A stretch of 61,724 nucleotides of DNA, counting the filler, from Dugesia japonica (Eukaryota): assembly GCA_001938525.1 (NCBI GenBank). It is 6 parts of 6 records of this genome, joined end to end, with 100 filler letters (N's around TTAATTAATTAA, not from the genome) between each part and the next. Parts side by side here need not be neighbours in the genome. Positions count along the whole stretch, not along the records: positions 9,250 to 17,767 come from MQRL01586718.1; 5 more parts are not named here. One strand, given 5' to 3'. Both the position numbers and the translations under genes were made by a program. This document shows positions 2,626 to 49,200 of this stretch, one piece after another. The stretch's first letter is position 1, and each line of letters begins with the position of its first letter. Under the pieces are notes generated by a model. That model ran no database searches. It saw only the letters and a list, made by a program, of their open reading frames with translations, and was not told the DNA's origin.

Positions 2626-2940
2626 TTGAACAAGTTCCATGCAAAATCATTCACTTCCACTAAGAAATATAAAAGCAATAGCGATGATCATGAAATTACC
2701 TGGGAGCTATATCGATTAGCCTAGCGCAATTGGAAAGCTCAGATGGCTGGGAATTAGAGAGGAAGTGGCACACTCTCATAATCCAGAGAGATTTTGAAAG
2801 CGCAGATAGAGACCTTCGTTGAACTGTTAAAGTAGTTCTACGAGCGTGAAAATCGCCTTGTCGAAGATATCCTTAAATTGAGGGCATGAATGCCTCCCGA
2901 TTCAGTCGTGATAGATATTGGCACGCAGACTAAACTGTGA
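2626..2940 (+). pseudogene. Accessory ORF-X copy A: coiled-coil protein with C-terminal LC8-type motif
   Basis: Read through stops: LNKF..SDDHEITWELYRLA*R...KAQIETFVELLK*FYERENRLVEDILKLRA*MPPDSVVIDIGTQTKL*. Clearly homologous to 10061-10419. Confidence 0.7.
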
Positions 2941-3051
2941 TCTGCAACTTTTCGTTGTTTACTTACTATTCTTACTTTTTTACCATGTTGTTATAAGATA
3001 CATGCTTGGTTTTTGTTCTTTTTCTGTTTTGATCTTTTTTTCTTTTACCAG

Positions 3052-3378
3052 TTACCAAGTTCCATAAATAAGTGTCATTGTTTGTTACATGGTCTAACAT
3101 TGGAGCAACATTATTATAAACAACGAGAACGAATGTTACTCAGGCACATAAAGCGGAAGAATTGTTCTATACGACAACTCGAAAACTCCTATAAAATGGA
3201 TATTGCTAATAACACCATCTAACAATTGATTCATAGAGTTGAATTCCTCACACGATTTTTGGATGACCTCGCGACACTTCATAGCTTTATCTATGCGAAC
3301 CAAAATTTGTAACAATTGGGCGACACTGACGATGCCGCCCTATTTGACTTCGACGAAGAGACAGCATCTGCTTCGTGA
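3052..3378 (+). pseudogene. Accessory ORF-Y copy A, unknown function
   Basis: Follows a pyrimidine tract and CAG. Reads LPSSINKCHCLLHGLTLEQH...LLRHIKRK...RVEFL...DTDDAALFDF, with two internal stops and AATAAA at 3391. Homologous to 9591-9940. Confidence 0.7.
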
Positions 3379-5054: not shown

Positions 5055-7748
5055 CAGTCAACCCTCCTATAACGCGACGGATACGTTCTTAGGAAACGTC
5101 GCGTTCTAGGAAATCGCGTTGTAAGAGACATGAACTCTATAGATAAAAAGAAGTTAGGTTCCAAGTATAAAAAACTGCATTTAAATTAATAAAATGAAAC
5201 TTTAATAAGTTAATATTCAAGATTTTATTAGGAAGTCTTCAGTAAAATTATAATAAATTAATAAAATTTAATAAAATAGTTTACGTTTTTAAAAATTAAG
5301 AACTATATAAAAATTCAAATTTATAAAAATTAAAACAAAACAAATGCTGATGCATATTATTTATACAAATTTTTCTTCATCACTACTAAGCGGATGATGC
5401 CGCGAACGTTTGGCTGGTGCTACATCCGAATCTGAACAACTGGAGCAATGGATAGGTTCGTTAGCTCTCTTTATCGTTATCGGCTTGACAAAATCAGTTA
5501 TTAAAGATTTTTTCATTTTTGCGAGCAAATTTTTATAAATTTCGTCATAAGGAGACAAGCAATTTTCTAAATTTCTTTTAAATTTTTGAGATCTTTCCTC
5601 CAGTGGATCATTCTCTAAAAAATAATTTGCTAACTGCTTCGCCATACCTAAACCTTTTTCAACACATTTTACAGTAAATTTCTTGGATTTATCTTCATCA
5701 TCAGATATATCTTCAGAATTACTATCTTCAATCGGNNNNNNNNNNNNNNNNNNNNNNNNNNNNNNNNNNNNNNNNNNNNNNNNNNNNNNNNNNNNNNNNN
5801 NNNNNNNNNNNNCCAATGTTATTTCATCGAACCCATCGCGTCTTATTGCGTGTGCAATATTAAGTATCTTTCCAAATCCGGCCTGAGTTGGTTCAACAGC
5901 ATCTTTCTGATTTACCATTTTGGGTAATAATACTTTCCAACAAGCATTTACCGTGGATTGACGCATTTCTTTAATTGACGATGCAACAAATTCAACACAA
6001 TACAAAATTGAGAATTGTTTCCAAACTTCGCTAATTGTAATATATATGTTTGTCTATTTTGTCTAAGATTAATTGAAACGACCTACGGATATAAATTTAT
6101 TTAAAATTCGCTATGATCCCTTGGTCCAAAGGCTGTTATAGCGAGGTAATATTAGGGGGTAAAAAGGTTATCTACACATTTGGGTGATTTAAATCACATG
6201 AATGTGAGGGCGCATTATTCAAAATTAGTAGAACTTTGAATGCTACGTTCTTTTTCTTCAAATAGTTTTCCACATCCGGAACAAAACAATGATGGAACCA
6301 ATTGTTAAATAAATTAGCCGTCATCCATGACTTTTTATTGACCCTCCAATACACAGGAAGGTTTTTTTTGTTACATCGTTTCAACGCTCATTGAATTTAA
6401 CGATCGGTTAATGAATATAGGCTTAGTCATAAGATCACCAGATGCGTTACTGCAGAAAAGTAAGGTGATCCGATCCTTAGCAGCCTTAAATACAGATGCT
6501 ATTCTTTCATTTTTTGAAATATAGGTTCTAGAGGGCATTTTTGTCCACCACAATTCTGTCTCGTCGGCGTTAAACACCTGATCGGCGGAATAGCACTTTT
6601 CTTGAATTATTTTGGAAAGTTCTCCTGGAAACAGCTTTGATCCTTCTACATCAGCAGATGCTTTTTCTCCCTGTAGTTTTATATTGTGCAAAAAATGCCA
6701 TTTTTTGAATTATTCAAACCATCCATTGCTAGCAACAAACCTATGGCTGGGTTCATCAGCTGACGATTCTCCCATTTCTTTTAAACATTTAAATATTTTT
6801 AAAGCGTTTTCTTTGAGCCTATTTCCGTTTAAAGGTAACCATTTTTTGTCATATCTTCTACCCATACTATAAGGGCTTGTTCCAGTTTTTCCATTATATT
6901 TGTTCTCGGACGAGCAGTAATTTTGGCAAGCACAGATGATCCAGATGCTACCAAATTCCTAATTATTTCTTCTGTTTGTTTTATGGTTCTAATTGTTGAC
7001 TCATTTAAATTAAAATATTTGACTACATCAGTAATCTTCTCTTGATTTTTAAGCCTATTCAAAATTTGAATTTTGGTTTGAAGTGAAATAAATTTTCGGA
7101 TTTTCTTTCATTCGGCATTTTGAATGGTATAATGATATTTTTCCTATAAATTTAAATTATATATAATTATATTATAATTGATTTATATAAAAAATCTTTC
7201 TGAACCAATTTCTTACTTACCTTTTAATTATCACTGAAACAATATTTTAATTTTTGTGTTTGGTTCTGTTCCATTCAACACCAAGACTAAACTTACGAAA
7301 AATTAATTGTTCATTGTATTTGTAGGTTCATCACTTATATCAAAACCGTCTATGTACATACTATTAAATTTTGGATAATAGAGAAAACAGAATTAAAACA
7401 AAAAGAACACCTGTTTCAACATACACATGTATAGAAAATAAAATATGTATGTATGTACATATAATAAAATTTCTTTTCATCCTAAAGTTACCACAACTGC
7501 AAAANNNNNNNNNNNNNNNNNNNNNNNNNNNNNNNNNNNNNNNNNNNNNNNNNNTGTATGTATGTACATATAATAAAATTTCTTTTCATCCTAAAGTTAC
7601 CACAACTGCAAAATAAACACACATTTTTATATTTATACACTGAGATTTTTTTAAATCGCGTTTTAGGAAAAAAACTCGCGTTATGAGAAAAATTACCGTA
7701 ATTTATAAATCGCGTTATAGCGAAAACGCGTTGTAGGAGGCTTTACTG
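5055..7748 (-). mobile_element. Tigger/pogo DNA transposon, near full length, frameshifted transposase (about 5361-7130)
   Basis: TIRs CAGTCAACCCTCCTATAACGCG / CGCGTTGTAGGAGGCTTTACTG with TA TSD; HTH region, VFNADETEL, KDRITLLFCSNASG, WMT, LILNNAPSH motifs. Confidence 0.93.
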
Positions 7749-9315: not shown

Positions 9316-9590
9316 TTTGTGGTCTCACCCGAGTTGGGAATCGAAAACCAGTGGCTGTGGAAAAGACAGCCCTCTAGGGGACCCATTCAAGAATTTTAAT
9401 CCAAAGCCCCTCAGTTGGATATTCAGTGTAGAGTGGTTGACCTTCGACCCTTACGGGAGGTTCGCACTCGTACACCTTTAATTTGGGTTCATTTTTTTCC
9501 CTGATAGTTATAAACAAGTTAAACAAAAGTTATCTGAAAATATCTATTAAATAACATTTATTGTTCTTCCAAAACACCAGGCTCTAACCA

Positions 9591-9940
9591 CTATACTGGG
9601 TCAGTCACCCAAAAATCGAATGCAGCTAAGTCATCGCTGTCATTCCACTGCATCCAATCCGGGTTCCCCATCTGACTTGACAGGTCAGCTGTATATTGTT
9701 TCAAGAATTTTATCTTCCGTTGCAATATCTGGGTATTCTGCGCTTCAAGAGCCTTAGTTTTCTAGGCCAAGTCATTTTGTTTCTTAACCACTAAATCAAA
9801 TTTCTTGATTAATTGATCCCGCCGAGAGAGATGTCTTAGCAGAGCCTGGTCGGTCTTACGTTTTGAATGGCGTTCTAACAATAGACGGCTCATGATCCGA
9901 TGACATCTCCACAAACTAGTTGGTAATACAATTCGTGCCA
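9591..9940 (-). pseudogene. Accessory ORF-Y copy B
   Basis: Acceptor TTTTCTTTAG at 9941. Reads ARIVLPTSLWRCH...LLRHLSRR...RKIKFLKQYTADL...DSDDLAAFDFWVTDPV*, with one internal stop at 9762 and AATAAA at 9557-9562. Confidence 0.72.
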
Positions 9941-10060
9941 CTAAAGAAAAATTACAGTTTAGGTAGGCAACCTCCACGAAAAAAATTGGAGGATTAGATT
10001 GTAAAAGATACAAATAATAAAACGATTTATTAAATCCAATCACAAATAAAGCACGAAAAC

Positions 10061-10419
10061 TCAAGAGCGGTTAGTCTGGATACCTTTATCTATCAAAGGC
10101 GGGGCCAAAGGTATGGCTGCCCTCAATTTTAATATATTTTCTATTAATTTATTTTCCCGCTCCTGATAAGACTTGATAATTTCATTGAAGGATTTAACTT
10201 GCGCTTTCCATATCCTCTCTTGATTCTGGGTCGCTTCCACTTCCGATTTAAAAGATAAACATTTCTTCTTATAGCGCTTAACTTTAGCCTCAGATGCTGC
10301 AGTCTCAGCCTCCCGTCGCCGCTTTGCGAGTCGGTATAAATTTCACGTGAGCTCTATATCATAACTGGTTTCACGTAGTTTTTTATTCGGGCCCTGAGAT
10401 CTATTCAAGGATGAATGCA
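10061..10419 (-). pseudogene. Accessory ORF-X copy B: coiled coil ending DKGIQTNRS
   Basis: Acceptor ATTTTAG at 10420. Frame is open except one TGA at 10343-10345, where copy A has TGG (Trp). Confidence 0.72.
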
Positions 10420-10623
10420 CTAAAATGCAATATTACTCATTAACATAGATTCAAAAGCGAAATAAATTTCCTAAAGAAAGTAACTCGAAGATAAAACGCA
10501 TAAGGAAAAAATCTCCCTACTGAGATTGCGTTTGAATAAAACAATAACTTTTCAGATAACTGGAATAAAGGGTACAAAATATTTTACTAAGAACATCAGA
10601 TAAACACAAAGATAATGTTGGTC

Positions 10624-11043
10624 TTATGGAGAGATATTTGGTGTGAGCGGAGCATGGTTTTCGGCTGACCCGCCACTAGCCCTATTTCGTAAATCCCATA
10701 GAGTATTTCCGATATCAATATGAAGACTAGTATCAGGAGGCAAATGTGTGGCCGCCACGGGTAGAAAGGTAGGTCCGTCTTGCCATACTCTAGTGGATTC
10801 CCCGGTTAAAGGGTCTACAACCAAGTCAAGGTGTACGACCTCTTGGGTTCGGTCCGGTCCTCGCCAAGCATAATATGCGTTTCTTTCTACGGCATCCCAT
10901 TCCCGCTCATTGTCGGCGTCGATGGCTGGCAAGTTTGAATGATCTCGAATCACATCCGCATTCCGATCATGCTGATTATGGTAACATTTAAAAACCACTT
11001 TGTTAGTCCTGGTATCGAGAAGGGTCTCCCAGATGAAATCCAT
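10624..11043 (-). CDS. Intact 139-aa orphan ORF, putative retroelement accessory protein
   Basis: ATG-to-stop ORF, GC-richer than its flanks, directly preceded by TTATTATTATTTACAG-A-ATG. Confidence 0.6.
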   Translation of the reverse strand: MDFIWETLLDTRTNKVVFKCYHNQHDRNADVIRDHSNLPAIDADNEREWDAVERNAYYAWRGPDRTQEVVHLDLVVDPLTGESTRVWQDGPTFLPVAATHLPPDTSLHIDIGNTLWDLRNRASGGSAENHAPLTPNISP

Positions 11044-11332
11044 TCTGTAAATAATAATAACCTAAATTCCAGATTCTATGATTTATGGTTCTAAAATAAG
11101 GGGAATGATACTGATGTGACTATCTACTGGAAAGTCAAATTAGTGAATAATCTAACAATGTAGAAAGAGGCAGACCCGAAATCACAGAGTAATTAAAGGA
11201 ATGACGATATTCTACTTTGGGGCGAATTCAACAAATGAACAAAGTTTTATAAGGTTTAATTGATAAAACAATGATTCAGTAGTGTGCTTTATTATGTCAC
11301 TTTTAAACTGGTCCATGATACCAGGTTTTGGA

Positions 11333-11518
11333 TTACTCCTTGTGCTCCCCGTCGGTAGACGATTCCAACGGGAACATCTTGGCAAGACAGCCCAGGTCTG
11401 TCTCGTCGGGGTGCTCGACGATCCGAGGGAATAGCAAATAACCAATTAACTGTTTTAGACGAGCTGCGCGTCGCTGTTTTTTGATAGTGTGGAGAACTCT
11501 CTGTAACTCTGGGGTCAT
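11333..11518 (-). CDS. 61-aa basic orphan ORF, putative retroelement accessory protein
   Basis: Preceded by TTATTATTAATTGTAG-AAA-ATG; contains a KKQRRAARLK basic patch. Confidence 0.5.
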   Translation of the reverse strand: MTPELQRVLHTIKKQRRAARLKQLIGYLLFPRIVEHPDETDLGCLAKMFPLESSTDGEHKE

Positions 11519-11899
11519 TTTCTACAATTAATAATAAGGGTCAATATTTCATCCATATACCAGTTGCTACTCAAATTTACCCTGAGAGTAAAATAAAATT
11601 AACGAAAAGAAAAAATTTATATGGTGCGATAAAATTCCTGTTTGGACACGAACTCGATTAAAAACAAAATGAGTTACATAAACCCCACTATCGAATCATG
11701 CCTAGTGAATTTTATAAAGTGACGACCAACACTACCATATATTTACACAAAACTTCCCTTATTTTTACTGGGTCCTCTTTTTATAATAATTTAGGCTCGA
11801 TAGCGTCATCTAACCCCCTCTCAATCATCTCGTACTAAAAATCGTATGATCCACTTACCCGTGATTTGAGACGATGTCATAGGAAGTAAGCTGGTTCTC

Positions 11900-41144: not shown

Positions 41145-42307
41145 ATTTTCTAAAATGTTAAGTTAAATAGGTTTTTGAATCTTCTGGAAACTTGATTTAT
41201 TTTCCGTTATCATCACGTATATTAATTTCTATATTGCTTATGCATGATGTTGCAATAGGTAAATACATTCGATTATCAACTATTTTTTGTATTTACAAAT
41301 CTTCATCAGTTTTATGCTTTTCTATCGAAAGGTACAATAACATCTCCTACAATTATAGGTTCAACAAGAATACTATAGATAAATATTTGCTGATGTAACT
41401 TAACTGATGATTTTTGGATTTCTAACACCTTGTATTACACCATTCTTCATATCTGCAAGCGAATAATGTTCTTTTTCTAAGCCCAATATTCTTGACAAGA
41501 CTTTATCGAATGTGACAGTTTTGTCTTTCATTGAGAATTGAAATAAATTATTTGCTTTCAGAGAAATCGTATTAAATAGTTTAGATCCGCTTTTTGTTAA
41601 ATTTTTACTTAGTTGGTCTATTTTTGTTATGTATAATTCATCGTTTAACTGTACAGTATGATAAGTTACTTTAGAATAAGCCATTATAATTTTTACATTT
41701 TCTAATGAAGAATCATTTTTAAATAATGAATATATAACAGAAAGCCATCCTTTATCCATTTTGTTAGATGTATATCGGAATCCAAATTTATGTGCAATTT
41801 TTTCATGTTCAAATGTGAGTACATATGGATATTCACAACCAACAGTTAAATAACCTCTGAAAGATATAAAAGCATTCTCATTTTGCTTGACAGTTACGAC
41901 TTTTGATTTGGGATTAAGTGTTACAGTTATTTCATTTACTATATTTTTAGATGTCATGTATTGAATTTTAGAATTGCTATATAAAGGAAATATTTGATAT
42001 ACAAAGGAAAAATCTAACAATGCTACTTCCCAACTATCATCCATATAAATTGAATTTGGAAGCTCAAAAATGAATTTGCTAACATTATTTTCTGGATGAA
42101 TAAGTGTACAGCTTGCATCCGTCCATATTATCTTTAGTATCCCAATATCAACAATTCAATGCTAATTTGAAGTCAAAATTAGGTAATGATTGCAATCCAC
42201 CCATTGTTTATTAATATATTGGTCAAAAGCTTCAATTGTTTATTTGAAATGAGTTAAGCCTAATGCTGTACACTTGGTAAAAGTGTAAAGAAATTACTCG
42301 ATTTCAT
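41145..42307 (-). pseudogene. Polinton minor capsid protein (PX) with a 5' insertion
   Basis: FFTLLPS...HPENNVSKFIFELPNSIYMDDSWEVAL...ILGL...MYLPI...IEINIRDDNG. Confidence 0.8.
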
Positions 42308-46229: not shown

Positions 46230-49200
46230 CTAATTTTGATTTCGTTCATTATTCTTTCTTTACCGTTTCCGGTCATAATTCATATATACTCGTAACCCGT
46301 AGTTCGATTGCGTCCTCGCATTCCTTTGGTTTTGGTTCATATTTTATGATACTCGCTTGATTTTCAATACATACTTAATTCTTACTAGTTATTCTCTTAT
46401 TAGTCCTTACTCCATTAGTTTCCACTTTGAGGGTCGTCTATTAGTCTTTATTTTATTATCTAGTTCAATCTTAATACATTGTAATTTTTACTGGTTTGTT
46501 GTTATTAACAGGAGAAATTTATCAGTAGTTGTCATGTTTAGAAAATATTCTTAATACCCTTAATAATTTAATTACGAAAAAATTACTTCCTAGAAATTCC
46601 AATGTTTTTCAGATAATAATTAATTCAAAATTTGTTAATGAAACATATATTGCTAAGATAGGGTACAGCAAAAACTTTAAAATGACATAACCCATCAGTA
46701 CTTACATGAGCCATGAATCGATCTGGAGCAGGCACTGTGTAAAATAGAATTATCACGATCACCAATTGTATTGACGTGGCGTATTCAACTTAATCATTAC
46801 AACTTAATCATAACAAAGATTATTATTCCGGATTCTATGTCCTCCGTGATTTTGCAAGTAAGAAATCGTTGCAAAACACCAATTTTAAAACCAGTTATTA
46901 CATTTTGCGATAAATTTCGATCCAAAATTTGATTGAGTTAAAATTTGTTTGATTTTCTTCTGAAATTGAAAAGGTATTTATACTAGTTTTTTTTCCACCC
47001 CGTTCTTTTTATTGGTTATTGGGCATCGTACTATTCCTGTAGCGTTCTTATTAGCGTGATTGTCACATGAGTTCTTCTTATTAGTTGAAACTTTGGAATT
47101 CCAAAATTATTGGAGTTCCATGGGTCAATTTTCAAACCCTGGTATCTTCTTTTTTAGTCTTCCTAAAATTTTTTAATTTAGACTTTCGAAATCTCCGAGT
47201 TTTTATTGACTATAATTTTCTTAATTGCTAATTTTGTCTCAATGGGAAGTCTTCATTTTCCTATATTTTCGTATAAATTTAATTTTCGTTTTTTTTAAAA
47301 TAAATCATTTTAATTTGCATAATTTATTTTATTTAAATATTTTCTTCTTAATTAATAATTAGAAGTTCATTTTTTGTTTTTCTGATCTAAAATTAATTTA
47401 ATTTCTCCATTTTCTTCTACTTATTTATTCATTAAATTTATTTTCTCTTCAATTATTAATTCAATATGATTTCCTTATTTTTGCTTAATGAATTAATTTC
47501 TAAGTTGCTATTTATTATTTGTTTGTCGTGTTAATAGCTCTTATTACTTCTTTTCTTCTTTGACTTTCTTATTGTTTCCGGCTGTAATCCTAGATTTTGC
47601 TGGTTATATTTTAGCTCCTTAATCTGGTTTTCTCTTTAGTTATTGCTTTCTTTAATCAAATTGTGTCCTTCCTTTGTCTGGATTCTTCGTTTTCTTTTCT
47701 TGTGGTACTCTTTCAAATTTTCGGATTTGGTGTTTCACCCCAACAAATGTATTATATCAATTTTATTTTACATATCAAATTGTCTCAAAATACATTTGTG
47801 AACCGTTATTGATGTAGCATGGCAAAATAATTGATGAGTGAATCAATGAATTTAACCAAATTTTTTTGAATTGTAAAAACAATATTTTAATCAATTTAAA
47901 TTTAAAATTTCTTTTAAAGCTTAAGTGCTTTTTAATAACATTGATTTATTTACATTCTTCTTGCCATTTACAACCACCAATTTGTAACATTAGTGCCAAC
48001 AGTTTAGTTTTTAATTTTTCAGATTTAGGTTCTTTTATGTATAGTCTAGCATTGGACATATGTTTCAAAATCTGCTCTTGAAAGAGCATCTTCATTCAGA
48101 TTTTCTTCAACTTTCTTGTATTCTATTTTAATATCCAAACTGCTAATTTTGAAATTGCTATGTTATTAGTCTTTTAGTCTTCAGCATAAACATTTGCATT
48201 TCATGATTACTTCTAATAAATAATGTTTAACATATTCTGCGAAATAAATAATCACCAAAAGTTCTTTCCTGGTAATGCAATAATCCAGCTCATGTTTACT
48301 TATGGCTTTAGATCCATAAGCAATAACTCTTTCTTTACAATCGTTATCAATTTGACTTAAAACTACACATATTTTATCAAATATGGCATTAGTATTCAAT
48401 ATGAATTCTTTAGAAACATTGGGAAATACTACAACTGGAGCATTTATTAGTTGAGATTTCAAATTTTTAAAAGAAATTTTGCACTTTTGTCCAGCATATT
48501 TTTTTCTGGCTACTATCAAATAGATTTTCTAAACCTTTTGAATACTTTGCGTAATCCTTTATAAATTTCCTATATTAATTTGCGAGGCCTATAAAACTTA
48601 TCAACGTTTTAACAAATTTTGGGGTTTCAAAATTAAAACTTGCTTCAATTTTTTGTTATCAGTATGTATTCATTTTGAATGAATAATATGACCCAGAAAT
48701 TTAATCTCGGTTTTCATGAAATTACATTTAGATGGATTTATTTTTAAAATGGCTTTTTAATACGTTTTAAAACATTCTTAATTTCTTTTAGTGTTCTTTA
48801 ATAGTTTCGGAAAAATTTAGTCCATATTTTTTTCCAATTTAAGGGAGCTATAACTTAAGTCTTCAATTTTTGAAAAGCAATATGAACAGCTGCAATTCAA
48901 AATGAAATTATATTAACACAATATTGTGCATCTTTTATCGGTAAAGCAGTTTTATATTTTGCATTATCTGTTAATTCAATTTGATAGTAAGCATACTAGT
49001 AAAATATTTGGCTCCATATAAAATATCCTTCATTTCTTCAGTGTTTGGAATGAGAAAAATTGGTCTTTCTGTAACTTCATTTAATAATATATAATCTAAG
49101 CAAAGTCATATTTCATCATTGTCTCGTTTTTCTACGCAAACCAAAGAAGCATTTCAAGGTGAGTAACATTTACTTATAAATCCATTTATTTCCATTTCCT

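Follow-up and report, generated by a model that had tools for sequence, protein, structure and literature searches.

A row of terminal-exon-like cassettes near a decayed Ty3/Gypsy reverse transcriptase in Dugesia japonica suggests gene control of the complex-virus type

A row of short minus-strand units, each laid out like a final exon, was found in a 61,724-nt stretch of Dugesia japonica DNA (the window) and suggests gene control of the complex-virus type. Its anatomy, coding constraint, multi-copy status and frame arithmetic are directly supported. We give about even chances to the reading in which the array holds the accessory genes of a Ty3/Gypsy element, with one leader cis-spliced to alternative terminal exons. 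It would then occupy the 3' part of a multi-copy element of Ty3/Gypsy type, the present copy being dead, and each unit would be a terminal exon made up of a 3' splice site, a short ORF, a stop, a poly(A) signal and a T-rich spacer. The features are as follows.

14376..14735, minus strand: Ty3/Gypsy reverse transcriptase (RT) N-terminal fragment, decayed; 120 aa, 4 stops, 3' side cut off
13750..14370, no strand: insert at the place of the remaining RT/RNase H/integrase N-terminus; bounds approximate
13615..13696, no strand: very-high-copy patch containing a small hairpin; possibly an unrelated repeat
12866..13600, minus strand: putative C-terminal part of an integrase; its last portion is an open frame of 117 codons
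12200..12542, minus strand: cassette 0a; acceptor G at 12541, then a decayed reading frame; 3' end approximate
11990..12172, minus strand: cassette 0b; acceptor G at 12171, ATG 2 nt on, 54-aa ORF 12168-12004, AATAAA at 11995
11853..11880, minus strand: candidate coding mini-exon; ATG at 11880, full-consensus donor after 11859, phase 1
11582..11583, minus strand: additional acceptor-like site; no long frame downstream, donor-like GTAA 1 nt later
11288..11523, minus strand: cassette 1; acceptor at 11522, 61-aa ATG ORF (ORF1) 11518-11333, AATAAA at 11293
10583..11046, minus strand: cassette 2; acceptor at 11045, intact 139-aa ORF2 11043-10624, AGTAAA 36 nt past the stop
10026..10421, minus strand: cassette 3; acceptor at 10420 (AG|TG), phase-1 frame (ORF3) 10417-10061 with one stop and no Met, AATAAA at 10031
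9557..9942, minus strand: cassette 4; acceptor at 9941 (AG|TG), phase-1 frame (ORF4) 9938-9591 with one stop and first Met at aa 16, AATAAA at 9562
9319..9502, minus strand: probable polypurine tract (PPT) and start of 3' LTR; T-rich run, purine tract 9502-9492, 173-nt TG...CA segment
2635..3397, plus strand: copy A; paralogues of ORF3 (at about 2635-2940) and ORF4 (3052-3378), both decayed, order kept

The four acceptor-led ORFs described in the first-pass annotation are present on the minus strand, with the G of the YAG at 11522, 11045, 10420 and 9941 (YAG at 4 of 4 acceptors), but they are preceded by one or two more cassettes upstream. The T-rich tract reported before each YAG holds 10, 12, 8 and 9 T in 19 nt, which is inside or marginally below the 9-12 T counted at four spectrin acceptors of the host. 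The reported GC enrichment of the ORFs was likewise observed (0.41-0.51, versus 0.26-0.31 in the spacers and 0.27 in the whole window), as were the ATG 3 nt behind the AG in ORF1 and 1 nt behind it in ORF2, and the AG|TG acceptors of ORF3 and ORF4, which have no ATG at the start. In-frame stops, one each in ORF3 (10345-10343) and ORF4 (9764-9762), had been overlooked. The AATAAA noted behind the last ORF exists (9562-9557) but is not unique, a poly(A)-type hexamer being found behind each ORF; AATAAA follows the stops of ORF1, ORF3 and ORF4 at 40, 30 and 29 nt, with a chance of 12.5% per random 45-nt window. Spacers of 119-287 nt separate the units, and within the four-ORF array the distance from poly(A) signal to next acceptor is 90, 168 and 248 nt. 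Change-points in GC and T content agree well with acceptors only at 11522, 9941 and 9501.

Upstream, the acceptor of cassette 0a is strong (T13, its quality matched by just 0.4% of AGs) and lies 94 nt past an AATAAA at 12635; another copy spans 12195-12470 of this cassette with 25 differences and 0 gaps. Cassette 0b is the weakest unit because its GC content is merely 0.33, and a homologue search with it was empty. ORF1 is overlapped by a Met-less 75-codon phase-1 frame (11519-11295), and sorting 16 listed read differences by codon position favoured neither frame.

All array statistics were made post hoc. Single acceptors are not rare, since 1.3-16% of the 5,034 AGs in the window are equally good, although their clustering in cassettes is rare. 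A cassette rule returned 4 distinct cassettes within 12600-9502, a number reached in 0 of 1,000 shuffles for each of two nulls (means 0.48 and 0.24), and 9 scattered matches elsewhere in the window on both strands. The array might be read as a product of chance, in which AT-rich DNA holds GC-richer patches that code for nothing and happen to carry AGs and AATAAAs. The commonness of the acceptors (1-16% of AGs), the 9 outlying matches and the family, structure and fold searches without a match fit such a reading, which is nevertheless very remote in view of the cluster null, the third-position bias, the database homologue and the gap-free ORF2 copies, and which is already largely refuted for the ORFs.

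The four array ORFs were protein-coding. In comparison with copy A, codon positions 1, 2 and 3 differ in 40, 28 and 56 of 90 codons of ORF3 (E 1.3e-13) and in 43, 40 and 69 of 96 codons of ORF4 (E 1.1e-10), and the similarity between the spacers of copy A and those of the array is not above that of shuffles. This third-position-biased divergence, taken together with the spacers, points to coding constraint. ORF2 has a homologue (P0005) with 51% identity over aa 2-66 (E 3.6e-16) and an identical first Met. The other 2 of the 3 matches of the full HMMER scan, P0006 and P0007, were discarded as repeat-summing artefacts.

Two public runs (X3 and X9) contain diverged copies that together tile the array. 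In keeping with the terminal-exon anatomy, similarity stops 10 nt upstream of the ORF3 AG in 14 X3 contigs. Most of ORF2 is spanned by two other copies that differ from it at 74 and 39 places but have 0 gaps, and gaps fall mainly in spacers (0 in two ORF2 pieces versus 10-19 in three spacer-rich pieces); counter-cases are one ORF4 piece with 6 gaps and one internally deleted ORF2 copy. A skip in ORF2 is a deletion variant, as 55 other letters lie inside it, and none of 15 listed contig joints out of 24 has splice-type ends. Of the differences listed (40 substitutions out of 1,125 and 12 indels out of 105), none falls at the AG|TG sites, which argues only indirectly for AG|TG throughout the family.

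ORF2, ORF3 and ORF4 are conserved proteins outside known families. No homologue was returned by a word-index protein search with ORF2, ORF3 and the 117-aa frame, no relative by viral contigs searched with ORF2, the ORF2 alignment, RT and ORF4, and no homologue by metagenome contigs searched with the ORF2 alignment; a 17-nt end motif hit 40 metagenome loci, 0 of which matched further. Pfam and PHROGs gave just weak sub-cut-off matches for the array ORFs, a PDB sequence search gave only matches with E > 0.4, and the ESM Atlas gave nothing for ORF2. The ORF2 structure model is poor (pLDDT 45), and the Foldseek search with it, which returned nothing under E 0.001, is therefore uninformative.

That none of the ORFs resembles env was borne out, as the array lacks both a hydrophobic stretch (Kyte-Doolittle 19-mer maximum 0.44-1.17 over five frames of ORF1-4) and an env match (top env-like PDB match E 0.46). 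The transmembrane fusogen ORF that marks env- or sORF2/FAST-carrying gypsy elements is absent among ORF1-4. On its predicted structure, the ORF3 product is a soluble basic coiled-coil with a single helix at aa 27-101 (pLDDT 87.9), and the ORF4 product is probably similar. A likeness of the two to bZIP proteins was considered, but Pfam gave no bZIP match for either. They would most likely be nuclear or RNA-binding regulators in a Rev/CERV-like role.

The use of a single leader with alternative acceptors, one of two modes of expression proposed earlier, is favoured by the anatomy but found no junction reads among those placed. Two oligo-dT runs out of seven listed raw RNA runs were used, about a quarter of each, and 34 and 8 reads were placed from 1,887 and 1,749 million letters, with no joint and with depth near zero at the acceptors. 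As no junction read was found, we infer cis-splicing rather than observe it. An element-encoded leader would be joined in cis to a chosen acceptor and the RNA cleaved at the poly(A) signal of the same unit, resulting in one small mRNA for each protein. Units 0b, 1 and 2 would use their own start codon (ATG 1-3 nt behind the AG), and ORF3 and ORF4 would receive theirs at the splice junction. Unspliced RNA would require read-through up to the 3' LTR; the internal poly(A) signals are a burden for genomic RNA and count against the proposal.

Two sources for the junction-made start codon were weighed. Tentatively, and as the likelier of the two, a non-coding leader ending in A, encoded in the missing 5' end, would complete A|UG. 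TG follows 49 of 818 T-rich YAGs, and both Met-poor ORFs begin in this manner, in phase 1. Candidate host donors end in A in 3 of 3 cases, and an A-ended leader would therefore suit the host. The other source, the mini-exon at 11880-11859, is unlikely; it shares phase 1 with ORF3 and ORF4, and its donor has a null probability of 1.4% under strict consensus and 22-79% for looser donors.

Flatworm spliced leaders (SL) end in AUG (PMC12582326), and the second proposed mode was a trans-spliced mini-operon. The accompanying frame claim was confirmed: such a leader is in phase for copy A, whose candidate acceptors at 2634 (AAG) and 3051 (CAG) are both phase 0 with an AATAAA behind ORF4, and out of phase for ORF3 and ORF4 of the array, where at 10420 and 9941 it would read just 4 and 16 codons. 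This, together with the lack of an own Met in ORF3, disfavours the mini-operon for the present copy. Trans-splicing keeps some probability, since the cassettes of copy A, and likewise a RING cassette lying apart from them (phase 0, no starting Met), begin in phase, as an AUG-ended leader requires. An SL operon within a retroelement, in which the poly(A) cut is coupled to leader addition at the following acceptor, would also agree with the ATG 1-3 nt past the AG in three units and with the 90, 168 and 248 nt spacing, which resembles intercistronic distances in S. mansoni (median 99 bp, mean 233; PMC12582326, which also suggests that retrotransposon transcripts may receive SL). It is quite unlikely, given the frame arithmetic and the RNA runs, in which no loose read ends are listed at the four acceptors, though coverage there is near zero. 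A leader that varies with the element fits the phase-0 state of copy A and the phase-1 state of the array better than an invariant host leader.

Internal promoters could instead drive the units one by one, or the whole group that starts with the 11880 mini-exon, with the AGs closing short 5' introns. The full-consensus donor and in-phase ATG directly upstream of the four ORFs, the separate poly(A) signal of every ORF and the precedent of env in Tor3b/4b (PMC4402516) would suit this arrangement, but spacers of 119-287 nt offer scant space for promoters plus introns and cassettes 0a and 0b sit upstream of the mini-exon donor, which makes it highly improbable.

Returning to cis-splicing from an element leader, the Gypsy pol said to lie upstream is represented by a same-strand Ty3-type RT, but merely as a decayed N-terminal fragment 2.9 kb away. 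In phmmer against PDB the fragment matched Ty3 RT (E 2.1e-6) and Ty3 Gag-Pol (E 1.2e-5), and Pfam gave no match. The adjacent insert had no Pfam match in three frames and has an X9 depth of 0-0.7 across 13894-14205. The region 12866..13600, which from its motifs may be the integrase C-terminal region, is shared with another copy (X9 record 15 covers 13092-13566). The patch at 13615..13696 resembles an integrase-core motif by eye only; its X3 bin depth is 36,249 and its flanks varied at both sides. No integrase match was found for either in Pfam, PDB, the protein collection or the second in-window Gypsy tail. Depth over 12753-12915 is near that of a single locus (17.8 in X3 and 11.8 in X9, versus about 10 and 9.4). 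The link to pol thus rests on one scrambled locus, as a foreign insert lies between RT and array and depth is near single, and none of 16 listed contig pieces out of 2,847 bridges array and pol.

The array could therefore be a real multi-gene repeat of another mobile element or endogenised virus that is a chance neighbour of an old Gypsy RT. Besides the unconfirmed integrase, the insert and the near-single depth, this agrees with copy A being without pol (no homology to pol, ORF1 or ORF2 was found upstream of it) and with signs that modules occur apart: depth of ORF3 and ORF4 is about 5x that of ORF1 and ORF2, and one X9 contig spans ORF4 back to the ORF3 acceptor. We regard it as unlikely, however, because the strand is shared, the order runs as expected from RT through an integrase-like tail and the array to a PPT/LTR-like end, an acceptor-ORF-AATAAA unit is found behind the pol of another in-window Gypsy remnant too, and the searches found no viral relatives.

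The segment at 9319..9502, which we infer to be a probable PPT and LTR start, has the highest depth along the array (8,730 in X3), and 23 contigs diverge at 9502. It may alternatively be a further cassette, as it holds a 60-codon phase-2 frame with one stop. No second copy, direct repeat or 5' LTR was found within the window, and both ends adjoin simple repeats and assembly gaps. Rfam gave only one chance match, no tRNA was found, and there is no excess folding (z -0.26); a hammerhead or tRNA-derived segment was considered by eye and dropped. The array may sit in an intron of a spectrin gene; no spectrin exon was recognised downstream, below 29787.

A relationship to Burro, also raised in the first-pass annotation, receives no support from the anatomy: the short ORFs of the array stand apart from one another, whereas in Burro the additional domains lie in frame within a polyprotein of 4,873 aa (PMC6431247). 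Burro/GYPSM1 is similarly Gypsy-like with accessory coding capacity, but its extra domains lie in the polyprotein or an upstream ORF and its env between gag and pol (PMC6431247); Pfam found no RING, BIR, BCL2, MATH, ankyrin or env domains in the array ORFs. In the deltaretroviruses HTLV-1/-2, several small regulatory ORFs of the pX region lie before the 3' LTR and use alternative acceptors, which are joined either to exon 1 or to a small exon 2 (PMC6731619, PMC3468393). The array differs in its Ty3/Gypsy-type RT, in showing no env, and in ORFs that are mostly side by side with a poly(A) signal each; no sequence similarity was found and the likeness is one of working only. Cer1, a Ty3/gypsy element of C. 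elegans, makes CERV from a spliced mRNA (PMC10309623), which is a single 517-aa product of five exons as opposed to five or six units of 54-139 aa. The Tor elements of Oikopleura express a third gene via splicing from the 5' LTR or an internal promoter, env of Tor3a using a splice donor close to where gag begins (PMC4402516), but this is one transmembrane env and no array. The MDG1 group of Drosophila and other insects has small accessory ORFs, sORF1 and sORF2, that flank an alternative poly(A) site, and certain Lepidoptera have sORF2 behind pol (PMC11952523). These are two unspliced ORFs, usually upstream of gag, and sORF2 is transmembrane, unlike the array ORFs, which have no hydrophobic segment. 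LTR elements of bdelloid rotifers carry one ORF3 each (GDSL, DEDDy, CC, TM), and the ORFs of plant Retand are antisense. The adenovirus major late unit also combines one leader with many alternative acceptors and several alternative poly(A) sites; adenovirus is a DNA virus, unrelated in sequence.

A further-reaching proposal, possible but doubtful, is an animal Ty3/Gypsy lineage with a modular operon, in which a true Gypsy element carries five or six exchangeable acceptor-ORF-poly(A) cassettes, some with junction-made starts. In its boldest form, a host spliced leader would resolve the phase-0 subfamilies (copy A and the RING cassette) and an element leader the phase-1 ones; such host-leader use is decidedly unlikely. 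Literature searches returned no account of either design, and repeat libraries or paper supplements may already contain the family.

Extra ORFs of LTR retrotransposons are known, the published cases considered here being one or two per element. If the preferred reading is true, a Ty3/Gypsy element independently reached the regulatory design of complex retroviruses via five or six self-contained terminal exons. This raises the questions of how genomic RNA gets past several internal signals for splicing and polyadenylation, and whether one of the small array proteins is a Rev/CERV-like factor that permits such passage. ORF-based repeat annotation would overlook genes of this kind if their start codon arises only on splicing.

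The four minus-strand ORFs of the first-pass annotation (ORF1–ORF4; 11518-11333, 11043-10624, 10419-10061 and 9940-9591) were all confirmed on re-check. Other features are as follows.
12541 (-): strong acceptor (0a), heading a decayed frame
Acceptor 12171, AATAAA 11995 (-): fifth unit (0b), ATG 2 nt past the acceptor, 54 aa
29787-38448 (-): host spectrin-repeat exons (Pfam E 1e-26)
All four units were present, but the array is larger than had been described, with one or two further units upstream. The ORFs form GC islands (0.41–0.51) against T-rich spacers (0.26–0.31), as had been noted, and the acceptors carry 8–12 T per 19 nt compared with 9–12 in four host spectrin acceptors; each array acceptor alone is equalled by 1.3–16% of the 5,034 AGs in the window. 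No transmembrane-like stretch occurs in any of the five ORF1–4 frames, in line with the reported lack of env likeness. ORF2 is intact while ORF3 and ORF4 hold one in-frame stop apiece, and this copy is therefore dead. The AATAAA attributed to the last ORF does lie 29 nt downstream of ORF4, but is not the only hexamer: AATAAA also follows ORF1 (40 nt) and ORF3 (30 nt), and AGTAAA lies 36 nt downstream of ORF2, at a background rate for AATAAA of 12.5% of random 45-nt windows.

A cassette rule set post hoc (T-rich YAG, at least 50 codons and a poly(A) hexamer) returned 4 distinct cassettes within 12600-9502, with ORF4 escaping because of its stop, and 9 scattered matches outside the array. Under two null models the mean was 0.48 and 0.24, and 4 cassettes were reached in 0 of 1,000 trials each; a chance arrangement is considered highly unlikely. 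At 11581-11583 (-) one G separates an acceptor from a donor-like GTAA; speculatively, such a 1-nt exon would take the reading from phase 1 into phase 2, in which ORF2 lies. A small palindrome lies at 10510-10530 (-) in the ORF2–ORF3 spacer, and in 14 contigs from other copies half of it, reverse-complemented, sits shortly before the ORF3 acceptor.

The array is a repeat family. Alignment of contigs from two public runs to 9330-14205 gave 2,539 (X3) and 274 (X9) contigs, mostly at 80–95% identity, and overlapping pieces of other copies span 11853 to 10460 and then 10287 to 9684. The summed X3 depth, not to be read as a copy number, was ~10 for the locus itself, 198–441 over ORF1/ORF2, 1,005–2,164 over ORF3/ORF4 and 8,730 over the end segment. 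In 14 contigs similarity breaks off 10 nt before the ORF3 AG, and in 23 at 9502. One X9 contig links the end part of ORF4 (9631) back to the ORF3 acceptor region (10430), hinting at tandem or shuffled cassettes, for example tandem ORF3–ORF4 units.

The array ORFs were under protein selection. Two other-copy pieces of ORF2 differ at 74 and 39 positions with 0 gaps, compared with 10–19 gaps in spacer-rich pieces and 6 in one ORF4 piece. Decayed paralogues of ORF3 (E 1.3e-13) and ORF4 (E 1.1e-10) lie in the same order in copy A (2635-3378, +); differences at codon positions 1/2/3 number 40/28/56 over 90 codons for ORF3 and 43/40/69 over 96 for ORF4, in a protein-guided alignment that somewhat favours positions 1 and 2, and the spacers of copy A and the array align no better than shuffles. 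Searched against 1.84 billion proteins, ORF2 had 3 matches, one of them real (P0005; 51% identity across aa 2-66, first Met shared), from a 512-bp contig without context. ORF3 is predicted to fold as a single long helix (pLDDT 87.9), although single-sequence helices of this kind are easy to predict and point to no family.

ORF3 lacks a Met and the first Met of ORF4 is residue 16; both long frames are in phase 1 and start with TG, which follows a T-rich YAG at 49 of 818 sites. Among the 40 of 1,125 substitutions and 12 of 105 indels listed, neighbouring differences fall at 10427, 9981 and 9994 and none at the AG|TG sites, which would, indirectly, suggest that AG|TG is kept family-wide. With a non-coding leader whose last base is A, AUG would be completed at the ORF3 and ORF4 junctions alike, and units 0b, 1 and 2 would keep their own ATGs; all three placeable host donors end in A. 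Alternatively, the start could come from a mini-exon with a full-consensus donor after 11859 and an ATG 22 nt upstream, in phase 1. By chance, such a donor has a probability of 1.4% under the strict consensus and 22–79% under looser ones, and the ORF1 region also holds a 75-codon phase-1 frame. This donor is unable to serve units 0a and 0b, a point that also counts against internal promoters, which are held to be very unlikely. An AUG-ended spliced leader had been said to be in frame for copy A ORF-Y and not for the array copy; both candidate acceptors of copy A are in phase 0 (one a weak AAG), while in the array such a leader reads just 4 codons at ORF3 and 16 at ORF4. The former, with the phase-0 RING cassette described below, speaks for a spliced-leader operon and the latter against it, and we regard the operon as quite unlikely. 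Phase is uniform within a copy and differs between copies, which fits element-encoded leaders; from a host leader a single phase would be expected.

Behind ORF4 follow a T-rich run, a purine tract, a 173-nt TG...CA segment, (AAT)n repeats and a gap. We take the tract and segment to be a putative PPT and 3' LTR from general LTR-element anatomy; the segment has no partner repeat within the window. As regards the proposed position downstream of a Gypsy pol, a Ty3-like RT fragment was found (E 2.1e-6), but it is cut off by an insert with no Pfam match in three frames and the expected integrase stretch had no match in database searches or in-window comparison, making the link weaker than claimed. 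No piece bridging pol and array occurs among 16 listed of 2,847. These breaks, and the near single-locus depth across 12753-12915, speak for the array belonging to another element; the shared strand, the expected order, an end resembling a PPT and LTR, and another Gypsy remnant with a RING unit speak against this, so that another element is deemed possible but unlikely and the putative pol link is favoured.
22000-23610 (+): second decayed Gypsy (RT E 8.5e-10)
24188-24526 (+): mariner HTH fragment (E 1e-3)
48181-48528 (-): Gypsy-type RNase H fragment (E 7.5e-22)
Behind the RT of the second Gypsy come a T-rich TAG acceptor at ~23449, a 47-codon RING ORF (E 2.9e-6; C3HC4, phase 0, first Cys pair before the first Met) and AATAAA at 23603; this unit (~23449-23603) shares the cassette design of the array.

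The window is otherwise AT-rich animal DNA (GC 0.27) with many transposon remnants. A 10-bp satellite of ~100 copies with gaps occupies 15326-16569, where the 5' end of the element would be. An ~80-nt, very high-copy patch at 13615-13696, with a small hairpin and many differing flanks, may be a separate repeat. ORFs at 18599-19533 (-), 26787-28440 (+) and 41400-42155 (-) resemble remnants of a Polinton/adintovirus protease, minor capsid protein and polymerase, with no Pfam match in the four frames tested, and 5361-7110 (-) is presumably a decayed pogo/Tigger-like transposase. The spectrin exons are taken to encode a beta chain, also the top Atlas cluster; no further exon was recognised below 29787, leaving the 3' end of the gene unplaced.

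The array family is nearly silent in the oligo-dT samples X12 and X15. In these 2 of 7 raw RNA runs, each covered to about a quarter, 34 (X12) and 8 (X15) reads fell on the array region, mostly derived from divergent relatives and lying at the end segment or the 13615 patch, the latter taking most reads outside the end segment. No spliced joints were listed in either run, at a depth of 0–0.11 in the four acceptor bins.

The working design presumably also resembles an adenovirus late unit. It works like HTLV pX (PMC6731619, PMC3468393), and the nearest retrotransposon cases are Cer1 CERV (PMC10309623), Tor env (PMC4402516), MDG1 sORFs (PMC11952523), rotifer ORF3s (PMC5408684) and Retand (PMC11963269). 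The anatomy does not support the suggested relationship to Burro, which carries its extras in one polyprotein (PMC6431247), unlike the array. The available portions of PMC13524379 and PMC8532177 held nothing further on such arrays, and no description of a Gypsy element with a multi-cassette 3' array was found in the full-text literature searched (main texts, with few subscription papers and repeat-database entries). The array is a real, conserved, multi-copy set of novel small genes built like terminal exons, and there is about an even chance that it represents a cis-spliced accessory region of a Gypsy element, with splicing and the pol/LTR link putative.
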